The notes: a model not told the origin generated them from the sequence alone. Shown: positions 29,250 through 49,200, counted from the stretch's first letter. The stretch is 64,000 nt of DNA from Candidatus Baldrarchaeum yapensis (GCA_016840465.1 JAEOSH010000002.1:36782-100781); one strand, 5' to 3'. Program-made: numbers and translations.

Positions 29250-29324
29250 TGGGCCCGGCGGGATTTGAACCCGCGACCCCCGGCTTATCAGGCCGGTGCT
29301 CTAACCATGCTGAGCTACGGGCCC
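29250..29324 (-). tRNA. tRNA-Ile (anticodon GAU)
   Basis: rc = GGGCCCGTAGCTCAGCATGGTTAGAGCACCGGCCTGATAAGCCGGGGGTCGCGGGTTCAAATCCCGCCGGGCCCA; anticodon loop CUGAUAA; no encoded CCA. Confidence 0.85.
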
Positions 29325-29348
29325 TGAGGTTGCACGTGCCTACACATC

Positions 29349-29359
29349 CATATATTTTA
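29349..29359 (-). promoter_or_regulatory. TATA-like element about 30 nt upstream of tRNA-Ile
   Basis: Sense AAAATATATGG. Confidence 0.35.
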
Positions 29360-29360
29360 G

Positions 29361-29435
29361 TGGTGGACCCGCCGGGATTCGAACCCGGGGCCTCCGCCTT
29401 GCGAGGGCGGCGCTCTACCACTGAGCTACGGGCCC
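29361..29435 (-). tRNA. tRNA-Ala (anticodon CGC)
   Basis: rc = GGGCCCGTAGCTCAGTGGTAGAGCGCCGCCCTCGCAAGGCGGAGGCCCCGGGTTCGAATCCCGGCGGGTCCACCA; G3:U70 identity pair; CCA encoded. Confidence 0.85.
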
Positions 29436-32342: not shown

Positions 32343-33065
32343 ATGAAGAGGGTAGTGATAAAGATAGGCGGTTCTATAATCTTCCGGTCAGATGGAACCT
32401 TGAATGATGATCTGATGAGGAAGTACGCGATCGTAATTAGAGATTTATTAAAGGACGATATCTTGCCCTCTATTGTGACCGGTGGTGGCATTATGAGTAA
32501 AAAATACGTAAAATGGGCTAAAAACTTCGGCGCTAACGATGCATTATGTGATATGCTTGGAATAACGCTATCTCGCGCAAACGCCTTACTACTGATATCT
32601 GCTCTTGGAGATATTGCATACCCAACCGTTCCAACATCCTTAGAAGAAGCATTGAAGGCTATAGCATCGGGGAAGGTCGTAGTAATGGGAGGACTTCAAC
32701 CAGGGCAATCAACAAACGCCGTAGCAGCACTTTTAGCGGAAAGTATTGGTGCTGAAATGCTGATAATCGCTACAGACGTAGATGGAATTTACAGTGCTCC
32801 GCCTGAGATGTCCGATGCAAAATTGCTTAAAAGGATTTCGCCAGGCGGGTTGCTGTCGTTAATACTCAAGCATTCGAGTTTTGAAGCGGGAAAGTACCAG
32901 TTGTTTGACCCACTTGCTGTTCTAATTATACAGAGAGCCGGAATAGTTGTGAGAGTAATCAACGGAATTGATCCCGAGAATGTAGTCAGAGTTCTTAGGG
33001 GCGAGGACATTGGTACGTTAGTACTGCCTGAAGACAAGCGATATGGTGCGGGGGGTGGGATTTGA
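32343..33065 (+). CDS. pyrH: Uridylate kinase (archaeal type)
   Basis: VVIKIGGS...IVTGGG amino-acid-kinase fold, about 230 aa. The last 22 nt overlap tRNA-Leu on the opposite strand. Confidence 0.75.
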   Translation: MKRVVIKIGGSIIFRSDGTLNDDLMRKYAIVIRDLLKDDILPSIVTGGGIMSKKYVKWAKNFGANDALCDMLGITLSRANALLLISALGDIAYPTVPTSLEEALKAIASGKVVVMGGLQPGQSTNAVAALLAESIGAEMLIIATDVDGIYSAPPEMSDAKLLKRISPGGLLSLILKHSSFEAGKYQLFDPLAVLIIQRAGIVVRVINGIDPENVVRVLRGEDIGTLVLPEDKRYGAGGGI

Positions 33066-33159
33066 ACCCACGTAGGCCTACGCCAGCGGATCTTGAGTCT
33101 CGACCGGGGGTCACGTATAGCCCCGACCGCCGCCTTTGACCGGGCTCGGCCACCCCCGC
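33044..33159 (-). tRNA. tRNA-Leu (anticodon CAA) with 28-nt intron at non-canonical position 30/31
   Basis: Mature arm GCGGA-CUCAAGA-UCCGC only forms after removing UCGGGGCUAUACGUGACCCCCGGUCGAG (plus-strand 33099-33126). BHB: CGGC-[GGU]-CGGGG...CCCCG-GUCG-[AGA]. Type II variable arm, discriminator A, CCA encoded. Confidence 0.75.
33099..33126 (-). other. tRNA-Leu intron (28 nt, BHB, position 30/31)
   Basis: See tRNA-Leu. Central helix CGGC:GUCG (one G-U), 3-nt bulges GGU and AGA, inner hairpin CGGGG:CCCCG. Confidence 0.65.
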
Positions 33160-48036: not shown

Positions 48037-49014
48037 ATGGAAATTAGAGTCTTGGTAACTGACCCTATACACAAAGATGGCATCGAACTTCTGAAAAAAA
48101 GTGGTTTTTCTGTAGATGAAAAGCCCGACATTAGCCATGATGAACTCGTGAAAATAGTAGGAGATTATGAAGTACTTATTGTGAGAGGACGTACTAAAGT
48201 CACAAGAGACGTGATTTCGGTTGCTAAAAAGTTAAAGGTCATTGGGAGAGCTGGTGTCGGTTTGGATAATATAGACTTAGAGGCCGCACGAGAGAGAGGT
48301 ATTACTGTATTCAATGCGCCGGAGGCCGCGTCAGTTGCCGTTGCAGAACTCGTATTTGGGCTTCTAATTGCAGTAATGCGCGGAATATGTTTAGGAAATG
48401 CGGCACTTAAAAGAGGAGAATGGATTAAAGCAAAACTTATGGGACATGAGTTAAGAGGAAAAGTTTTAGGAATAATAGGCTTAGGCAGAATAGGAACCGA
48501 GGTTGCAAAGCGCGCTAAGGCATTTGAAATGTACGTAAAGGCGTATGATGTTAGGGAAGAGGCCCGGCAATTGGCAGAAAGTTTAGGAGTCGAGTTTGTC
48601 GGGACTTCTAGGGAGGCGTTTGAGGAGTTGCTTAGAACTTCTGACATTATAACGATTCATGTCCCACTGACCAAGGACACTTATCATTTAATAGGCAAAA
48701 AAGAACTATCACTCATGAAACCCAATGCTATCATCATAAATACCTCACGAGGTGGGGTTATCGATGAAAATGCCCTTTATGAGTTCCTCAAAGAGAGAAA
48801 AATATACGCCGCAGGACTCGATGTTTTCGAACAAGAACCCCCACGAGATCTGCGATTAGTCGGATTACCCAATGTGGTGGCTACACCACATATAGGGGCA
48901 TCAACAGAGGAGGCCCAAAGAGCAGCATCTATAACTATTGCTGAGAGAATAATTCAGTACTTTGGAGAGAAAGGATGGCGCCGGGGGCGGGATTCGAACC
49001 CGCGCGGCCCGTAA
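48037..49014 (+). CDS. D-isomer-specific 2-hydroxyacid dehydrogenase family (phosphoglycerate dehydrogenase-like)
   Basis: GIIGLGRIGTEVAKRA NAD motif and catalytic R/E/H pattern. The last 39 nt overlap tRNA-Ser antisense. Confidence 0.7.
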   Translation: MEIRVLVTDPIHKDGIELLKKSGFSVDEKPDISHDELVKIVGDYEVLIVRGRTKVTRDVISVAKKLKVIGRAGVGLDNIDLEAARERGITVFNAPEAASVAVAELVFGLLIAVMRGICLGNAALKRGEWIKAKLMGHELRGKVLGIIGLGRIGTEVAKRAKAFEMYVKAYDVREEARQLAESLGVEFVGTSREAFEELLRTSDIITIHVPLTKDTYHLIGKKELSLMKPNAIIINTSRGGVIDENALYEFLKERKIYAAGLDVFEQEPPRDLRLVGLPNVVATPHIGASTEEAQRAASITIAERIIQYFGEKGWRRGRDSNPRGP

Positions 49015-49026
49015 GGGCCACGGGCT

Positions 49027-49039
49027 TTATGGTCGAAAT
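49027..49039 (-). other. tRNA-Ser intron 2 (13 nt, relaxed BHB/BHL at canonical 37/38)
   Basis: Bulges AGA and AAA flank a 3-bp helix UGG:CCA; no inner stem, so processing would need a relaxed-specificity endonuclease. Confidence 0.4.
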
Positions 49040-49047
49040 CTCCAGGC

Positions 49048-49066
49048 TTGCGCCCGCCGTAGCGGT
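49048..49066 (-). other. tRNA-Ser intron 1 (19 nt, strict BHB core)
   Basis: Helix GCGC:GCGC flanked by bulges GGA and AAG; inner stem CCGC-uacg-GCGG. Confidence 0.55.
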
Positions 49067-49200
49067 CCGCGCCTTGGCCAGCTAGGCTACCCCGGCGCGA
49101 TAATACCTATATGGGAGTTATGGTGGGGAAATGATTACATCCCGATACGGTACTTCGCTCTACTAATTTTACTTTTGGTTTTGACAGAAACTTATATTTT

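Follow-up and report, generated by a model that had tools for sequence, protein, structure and literature searches.

How many introns interrupt the tRNA gene that lies on the minus strand at positions 48976-49096 of a 64,000-nucleotide stretch of Candidatus Baldrarchaeum yapensis DNA (GCA_016840465.1 JAEOSH010000002.1:36782-100781; the window, in what follows), and which isoacceptor does the gene encode? The organism belongs to Candidatus Baldrarchaeia, an Asgard class. The original prediction, made from the sequence alone, was of a 121-nt tRNA-Ser(GGA) gene with a clean acceptor stem, D-arm, T-arm and encoded CCA, whose anticodon arm forms only if two very short segments are removed. The analysis reported here leads us to conclude that the locus is very probably a functional tRNA-Ser(GGA) gene with two introns. 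The gene's identity, its exon boundaries, and the conservation and covariation of its splice motifs are established below.

Structure of the gene

The coordinates and sequence of the 121-nt gene were reproduced, and its assignment was made with RF00005, a Ser(GGA) model, and ARAGORN run on the spliced form. All of its parts are on the minus strand. Exon 1 (49067-49096), delimited by sequence parse and by alignment to orthologues, comprises tRNA positions 1-29, that is, the acceptor 5' strand, the D-arm, G26 and C27 G28 G29, and reads GCCGGGG UA GCCU AGCUGGCCA AGGC G CGG. It is followed by intron 1 (49048-49066), 19 nt at position 29/30 with the sequence ACCGCUACGGCGGGCGCAA. Exon 2 (49040-49047) is only 8 nt long, G30 C31 C32 U33 G34 G35 A36 G37 (GC CUGGAG), with the anticodon GGA at 49041-49043; the segment GCCUGGAR is invariant across all the orthologues described below. 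Intron 2 (49027-49039), 13 nt with the sequence AUUUCGACCAUAA, is at the canonical position 37/38, and moving its excision by one base (49026-49038) yields an identical product. Exon 3 (48976-49026) starts with A38 and the 3' strand of the anticodon stem (A GCCCG U), and continues through the variable arm, T-arm and acceptor 3' strand (GGCCC-UUAC-GGGCC GC GCGGG UUCGAAU CCCGC CCCCGGC) to the discriminator G73 (48979) and the encoded 3' CCA (48976-48978).

The acceptor stem, D-arm, T-arm, long variable arm, discriminator G and CCA are intact in the unspliced gene. When both introns are excised, the result is an 89-nt RNA (86 nt plus CCA) which ARAGORN calls as tRNA-Ser(GGA) with a perfect cloverleaf, in agreement with the product first proposed, i.e., one with anticodon stem CGGGC:GCCCG, a long variable arm and G73. 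A 7-bp acceptor stem, a D-arm and a 5-bp anticodon stem are found together only with both excisions made; in the cloverleaf that results, the 7-nt anticodon loop carries U33 and, at 37, a purine, and the loop of the T-arm fits GTTCRAAT. A tRNA-Ser is identified by its long variable arm, by G73 and by its serine anticodon, all of which are present, as GGCCC-UUAC-GGGCC, G73 and GGA. The Rfam model RF00005 matched the locus with 39.3 bits, its alignment skipping 47 nt in the anticodon region. The score was 70.7 bits with R1, a covariance model specific to Ser(GGA) that was built without this sequence.

The locus was base-for-base identical in four independently fetched loci, which go back to two or more different contigs in public data, all from one species (99.98% identity). 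Since separate contigs carry the identical locus, an assembly artefact is ruled out. These contigs, reached by way of the YchF of the window and of its YchF cluster partner, are all of one species and bear on reproducibility, without variation.

One excision or two

All single and double excisions were enumerated over the 50-nt stretch from G26 to the variable arm. The 19-nt excision 49066-49048 was common to every model in which the anticodon stem has all of its 5 bp and the loop has U33. No single excision gave either feature: the stems had at most 4 bp and none of the loops had U33, which bears out the claim that the anticodon arm requires two removals. The single-excision products had stems of 4 bp that include an A·C mismatch, and their splice sites offered from 0 to 4 of the 4 central pairs and from 0 to 2 inner pairs of a motif of the bulge-helix-bulge (BHB) kind; among these placements, none joined such BHB pairs to an outer helix.

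For the 13-nt excision there are six adjacent placements, leading to the anticodons AUA, GUA or GGA. Only 49039-49027, at 37/38, has a usable splice motif, with 3 of 4 central and 5 of 5 outer pairs, the remaining placements having 0-2 central and no more than 2 outer pairs; because the splice-site geometry is usable only there, the 13-nt intron was placed at 37/38. The same comparison disposes of other isoacceptors, as a GUA or AUA anticodon would come only from 13-nt excisions whose splice sites have no more than 2 of 4 central pairs and no more than 2 of 5 outer ones, and the variable arm, G73 and the orthologues all indicate Ser(GGA). Two introns might nevertheless be present with the 13-nt one at 35/36 or 36/37 (49041-49029 or 49040-49028), an arrangement that keeps GGA but gives A37 and the loop CUGGAAA. 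The product would be an equally good tRNA (53.9 vs 53.6 bits for the product of excision at 37/38, by the profile described below), since A and G both occur at position 37 among the orthologues. The geometry, however, is poor, with 2 or 0 of 4 central and 2 of 5 outer pairs against 3 of 4 and 5 of 5 at 37/38, and the intron parses at 37/38 in every orthologue; we regard these placements as improbable.

Infernal with a custom Ser(GGA) model is blind to the distinction between one and two insertions, its local-end state taking up the whole anticodon hairpin (38 nt). Because the local end hides the number of insertions, explicit spliced products were scored instead, with a profile hidden Markov model built only from orthologues in which the anticodon stem is uninterrupted in the genome. 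Against this profile the product of both excisions scored 53.6 bits, the single-excision products 39.4-41.8 bits, and the unspliced sequence 36.2 bits. When the 50-nt central region was shuffled 3000 times, 14% of the shuffles permitted some two-excision stem, comparable BHB pairing appeared in 8 (0.27%), and such pairing together with a serine anticodon in 3 (0.1%).

Splice motifs of the two introns

Both motifs were recovered as originally described. Intron 1 has a central helix GCGC:GCGC (4/4) in which the exon strand G24-C25-G26-C27 (49069-49072), overlapping the 3' strand of the D-stem, pairs with the intron strand G-C-G-C (49050-49053), the latter running into the 3' bulge. The bulges are G28-G29-A on the 5' side and A-A-G30 on the 3' side, with the splice site after the second bulge nucleotide on both sides. 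Within the intron, CCGC-UACG-GCGG (49054-49065) makes a 4-bp inner hairpin with a UNCG-type tetraloop closed by C-G, as seen in the sequence and in the minimum-free-energy (MFE) fold of the precursor. The outer helix has 4 of 5 pairs (G23-C31, A21-U33, C20a-G34 and C20-G35). With its 4-bp central helix, two 3-nt bulges and flanking helices, the motif is of the strict hBHBh' form. The BHB conformer excludes the D-stem, because G24 and C25 belong to the latter; the computed energies were -50.3 kcal/mol for the strict-BHB conformer vs -48.8 kcal/mol for the D-stem conformer lacking the BHB, a slight advantage for the former.

The motif of intron 2 is of a relaxed type (HBh'/bulge-helix-loop-like). 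Its outer helix (5/5) is the anticodon stem itself, its inner helix is 1 bp, and its central helix has 3 of 4 pairs, G35-C, G34-C and U33-A, with a C32·U mismatch by the 3' bulge. The bulges are A36-G37-A and A-A-A38. The motif fits the relaxed form in having a 5-bp outer helix, the 5' bulge AGA, a 3-bp helix, and AAA within an enlarged 3' bulge. A 3/4 central helix is frequent at the 37/38 introns of the orthologues. The nucleotides U33-G35 are used twice, in the central helix of intron 2 and in the outer helix of intron 1.

Orthologous genes

The cbf5 loci of reference genomes were fetched (L002-L081), and a parser anchored on the T-arm and acceptor gave 53 tRNA-Ser(GGA) genes. Four genes, which have a third intron or one in the D-loop, were assigned by hand. 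A tRNA-Ser(GGA) gene lies just downstream of cbf5 in Methanosarcinales and anaerobic methanotrophic archaea (ANME), Nitrososphaerales, Thermoplasmata, Bathyarchaeia and Asgard metagenome-assembled genomes (MAGs); examples are L017:4970-5068, L036:3691-3796 and L046:5009-5107. The 37/38 intron, of 11-31 nt, is present in 51 of the 53 orthologues, L044 and L074 being the only ones without it, and lengths of 11-13 nt occur among them too.

The layout with introns at 29/30 and 37/38 was found in 13 other genes, from Bathyarchaeia, Borrarchaeota and others. The two introns are present in L003 (Borrarchaeota), in L050, L051, L054, L055, L070, L073 and L077 (Bathyarchaeia), and in L052. They are joined by a D-loop intron, making three in all, in L032:5208-5358, L042:5039-5189 and L056:5076-5221, and in L011:6959-7072 by a 22-nt intron that apparently interrupts the acceptor stem at about 5/6. 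After manual excision, the genes of L011, L032, L042 and L056 were all called Ser(GGA) by ARAGORN, their D-loop and acceptor boundaries being approximate.

When the 13 junctions were aligned in a fixed register, 95.5% of the cells of the intron-1 BHB central helix were paired across 11 distinct sequences. The pair between nucleotide 25 and intron position -4 was G-C in five of these sequences, C-G in four and G-U in one, the exchange of G-C for C-G being compensatory. Overall pairing was 81% in the set register vs 12-50% in slid registers, and the observed covariation score was reached in 1 of 500 shuffles.

The window gene and the Bathyarchaeia and Borrarchaeota orthologues are alike in isoacceptor, neighbourhood, insertion points and use of nucleotides 24-27 as the BHB exon strand, and intron lengths are similar (13-27 nt and 11-17 nt in the orthologues). 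They differ in the exon stem flanking the junction at 29/30, CGG/GC here vs CAG/GC in the orthologues, and in the intron sequences, which are unrelated outside a constrained 3' segment. The G/C-rich, UACG-capped hairpin of intron 1 is a feature of the window gene as against these orthologues.

The nearest syntenic relatives are L206 (GCA_019056805.1) and L208, which share the order cbf5-MTS-tRNA (MTS standing for an MTS-type methyltransferase gene) and whose MTS proteins are 59-60% identical to that of the window. Their exons are near-identical to those of the window gene in the acceptor, anticodon arm and variable arm (the variable arm of L206 being identical), and they too have the canonical intron. 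The sequence GCGGGCCUGGAG, which is the predicted exon junction with CGGGC and CUGGAG contiguous, is uninterrupted in the genomes of L206 and L208. Unlike in the window gene, however, their non-canonical intron, of about 20 nt, is in the D-loop rather than at 29/30, and at 20-21 nt their canonical intron is longer than the 13 nt seen here. At the equivalent place L209 has an intron-less tRNA-Ser(UGA). These differing intron positions among relatives point to intron turnover at the tRNA-Ser gene between related lineages. No tRNA gene adjoins cbf5 in L012-L015, the Jordarchaeia/Freyarchaeota loci with the closest Cbf5 proteins.

A separate observation concerns cbf5 of L209 (GCA_053988635.1), which is called as two open reading frames (ORFs). 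The conserved GHGGTL/DP motif is split by 36 nt (L209:1654-1689) of palindromic, G/C-rich sequence that includes an in-frame TAG, and removing this insertion restores the reading frame. It resembles the BHB-type pre-mRNA intron known from crenarchaeal cbf5 genes, and is a candidate for such an intron.

Weighing the assignment

Several observations weigh against the conclusion that the gene is a functional one with two spliced introns. The unconstrained MFE fold of the precursor has the intron-1 motif in a register shifted by 2 nt, with a 3-bp helix and 2-nt bulges, and the strict BHB of that intron is in competition with the D-stem. Intron 2 departs from the strict BHB in its 3-bp central helix, its C·U mismatch and its essentially absent inner helix. 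The covariation depends on one pair and a few lineages. A search of metagenomes for the pattern of these exons, with gaps of variable length allowed, drew mostly chance matches in GC-rich DNA; among the matches listed were at least 11 true tRNA-Ser genes, none with a 29/30 intron, and no close relative that shares the exons but has diverged in its intron at 29/30. Finally, the segment 49097-49176 has no clear TATA box/B recognition element (a TTTAAA/TTAATTT-like box) about 30 nt upstream of the tRNA-Ser gene, where only CATATAGG is seen, at -19 to -12; such a box is present upstream of the tRNA-Leu and tRNA-Ala genes of the window and of the L206 and L208 tRNA-Ser genes. As to the first of these points, the shifted register bears on the conformer seen by the splicing endonuclease EndA, not on the spliced product. 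As to the last, the tRNA-Ser gene may be co-transcribed with cbf5 and the MTS-type methyltransferase gene, which are on the same strand.

The lack of an obvious promoter box, and the poor handling of the locus by standard tools, would also suit a pseudogene, a disrupted tRNA gene without function from which the insertions are never taken out. Such a pseudogene is, however, difficult to reconcile with stems that are every one perfect once the insertions are excised, with splice motifs at both insertions of a kind rare in shuffles (3-8 of 3000), with a conserved cbf5-linked site occupied by tRNA-Ser(GGA) in many archaeal lineages, and with a layout common to 13 orthologues and accompanied by covariation. 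The exons are moreover 78% GC in a window of 43% GC, as expected of a maintained structural RNA. We consider a pseudogene very unlikely, and a functional gene with introns at 29/30 and 37/38 the much better account.

Performance of standard tools

Run by default, ARAGORN misses the gene; in intron mode it mis-types the gene as tRNA-Pyl(CUA), and the Rfam tRNA model aligns half of it. The miscall is not peculiar to this locus. For the window gene and its orthologues (L001 and L050-L077), the calls made in intron mode were Pyl(CUA), Thr(CGU), Asp(AUC), Ala(CGC), Leu(CAA) and Val(CAC), with one long intron each. The notion of a single 32-nt intron in a gene for a CUA-anticodon tRNA, amber suppressor or pyrrolysine-like, is suggested by the ARAGORN -i call and by Infernal alignments that span the region with one gap (stem CGGAC/GCCCG), but can practically be dismissed, for its product has an A·C mismatch, G33 in place of U33, 0 of 4 central BHB pairs at the splice sites and a score of 39.4 bits vs 53.6, the long variable arm of the gene body is of the Ser type and goes with G73, orthology and synteny both link the gene to archaeal tRNA-Ser(GGA), ARAGORN miscalls multi-intron orthologues likewise (as Thr, Asp, Ala, Leu and Val), and the single Infernal gap comes from the local-end state, which omits the whole anticodon loop. 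Two of the checks that had been proposed for the tRNA-Ser(GGA) assignment, ARAGORN and a covariance-model fold, thus leave it in place, the spliced sequence being called Ser(GGA) and the single gap being a local-end artefact.

Membership of the tRNA-Pyl family was considered in its own right and rejected. The gene has a 14-nt variable stem-loop and a normal D-loop, vs the very short variable loop and atypical small D-loop of tRNA-Pyl, and the only likeness is a CUA triplet that appears after removal of a single 32-nt segment.

Neighbouring genes and other RNA genes of the window

The flanking genes, archaeal and informational in function, are those for Nep1, a YchF-like GTPase and a 2-hydroxyacid dehydrogenase, followed on the minus strand by L34e, Cmk, an L14e-like protein, Cbf5, the MTS-type methyltransferase and the tRNA. 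The 2-hydroxyacid dehydrogenase ORF (325 aa, 48037-49014, plus strand) overlaps the opposite-strand tRNA gene by 39 nt (48976-49014). The codons for the final 13 residues of the ORF, GWRRGRDSNPRGP, lie antisense to the T-arm and acceptor of the tRNA, and public gene calls retain this end.

The window has a second interrupted tRNA gene, tRNA-Leu(CAA) (33044-33159, minus strand), whose only intron, of 28 nt (33099-33126), is a non-canonical one at 30/31, the canonical site being uninterrupted. The splice motif is a strict BHB with a central helix of 4/4, an inner helix of 5 bp and bulges GGU and AGA. ARAGORN calls the gene after excision; Rfam shows only a 37-nt unaligned gap. With a strict-BHB intron at 30/31 in tRNA-Leu(CAA), the organism must process non-canonical introns. 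Intron-less tRNA-Ala(CGC) and tRNA-Ile(GAU) genes are in tandem at 29250-29435 (minus strand), 36 nt apart, scoring about 76 bits, and neither adjoins rRNA. A sensitive Rfam scan of the window revealed no further disrupted RNA genes.

A proposed order of splicing

Both introns are predicted to be removed by splicing. Transcription of the gene, the order of splicing, the enzymes involved and the presence of G37 in the mature tRNA are matters that we infer from the structure of the gene and from related systems. A single precursor transcript would be made, and EndA would recognise the two motifs; for Asgard archaea at large, the enzyme is of the (αβ)2 type, with an L1 loop tolerating relaxed motifs. 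Relaxed motifs are cut only by (αβ)2 and ε2 EndAs, and Asgard archaea have (αβ)2 enzymes with the L1 loop (PMC5829648). Intron 1 would be recognised first, in a conformer in which the D-stem is open. Both bulges would then be cut after their second nucleotide, and ligation, presumably of the RtcB type, would join G29 to G30. The anticodon stem CGGGC:GCCCG would form only once intron 1 is gone, and would then serve as the outer helix of intron 2, a second round of cleavage and ligation giving the 86-nt tRNA plus CCA. On this model splicing is probably sequential, with intron 1 leaving before intron 2, because the outer helix of intron 2 requires that intron 1 be removed and because U33-G35 are used by both motifs. 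Iterative removal has been described as necessary for closely spaced archaeal introns by the authors of tRNAscan-SE 2.0 (PMC8450103).

We put forward a broader idea only tentatively, and rather doubt it: the 29/30 intron might be an old, vertically inherited feature of Baldrarchaeia, Borrarchaeota and Bathyarchaeia, or else mark a recurrent hotspot, with its removal obligatory before that of the 13-nt intron. If this were true, an ordered, refolding-dependent maturation pathway would be conserved across phyla.

Comparison with known systems

Archaeal tRNA genes in which several introns occur, of the BHB type and at non-canonical positions, were reportedly described by Marck & Grosjean in 2003 and by Sugahara et al. 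in 2007 and 2008. A practical consequence of such genes, given the tool calls above, is that annotation of Asgard and Bathyarchaeia MAGs may show missing isoacceptors, or spurious suppressor and odd-anticodon tRNAs. Incomplete tRNA sets in Asgard MAGs have been taken to point to undetected disrupted genes (PMC5829648). The orthologues also form a series, with no intron, a 37/38 intron, D-loop and 37/38 introns, 29/30 and 37/38 introns, or three introns, that is a data set for the study of intron gain and loss.

Archaeal tRNA introns range from 11 to 129 nt, with medians of 12-25 nt; the known non-canonical sites include 29/30, canonical and non-canonical introns co-occur, and their motifs are of the BHB or the HBh'/hBH type (PMC4090602). 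In 217 genomes, 673 non-canonical introns were counted by the tRNAscan-SE 2.0 authors, with up to three introns per gene (PMC8450103). That the 13-nt intron is near the lower limit of size, as had been remarked, holds with respect to the 11-nt minimum; the length is nonetheless unremarkable, because 12-25 nt is the usual range of medians. No similarity was seen of the two introns to each other or to other introns of the window, and there is thus no sign of intron transposition as described in Thermoproteales.

The window gene resembles the multi-intron tRNAs of Thermoproteales/Crenarchaeota and Thaumarchaeota in combining a 29/30 intron with the canonical one at 37/38 (PMC4090602, PMC8450103). 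It also resembles the crenarchaeal and thaumarchaeal cases in having one strict hBHBh' and one relaxed motif, and in intron sizes within 11-129 nt. It differs from them in its host, a member of Baldrarchaeia, which is thereby added to the lineages with multi-intron tRNAs, consistent with the published broad specificity of Asgard EndA. The gene is of value chiefly as a caution for annotation and as one record of how introns turn over in the tRNA genes of Asgard archaea and Bathyarchaeia. In sum, this tRNA-Ser(GGA) gene is an ordinary instance of the known protein-spliced tRNA introns of archaea, and leaves the working knowledge of such introns unchanged.

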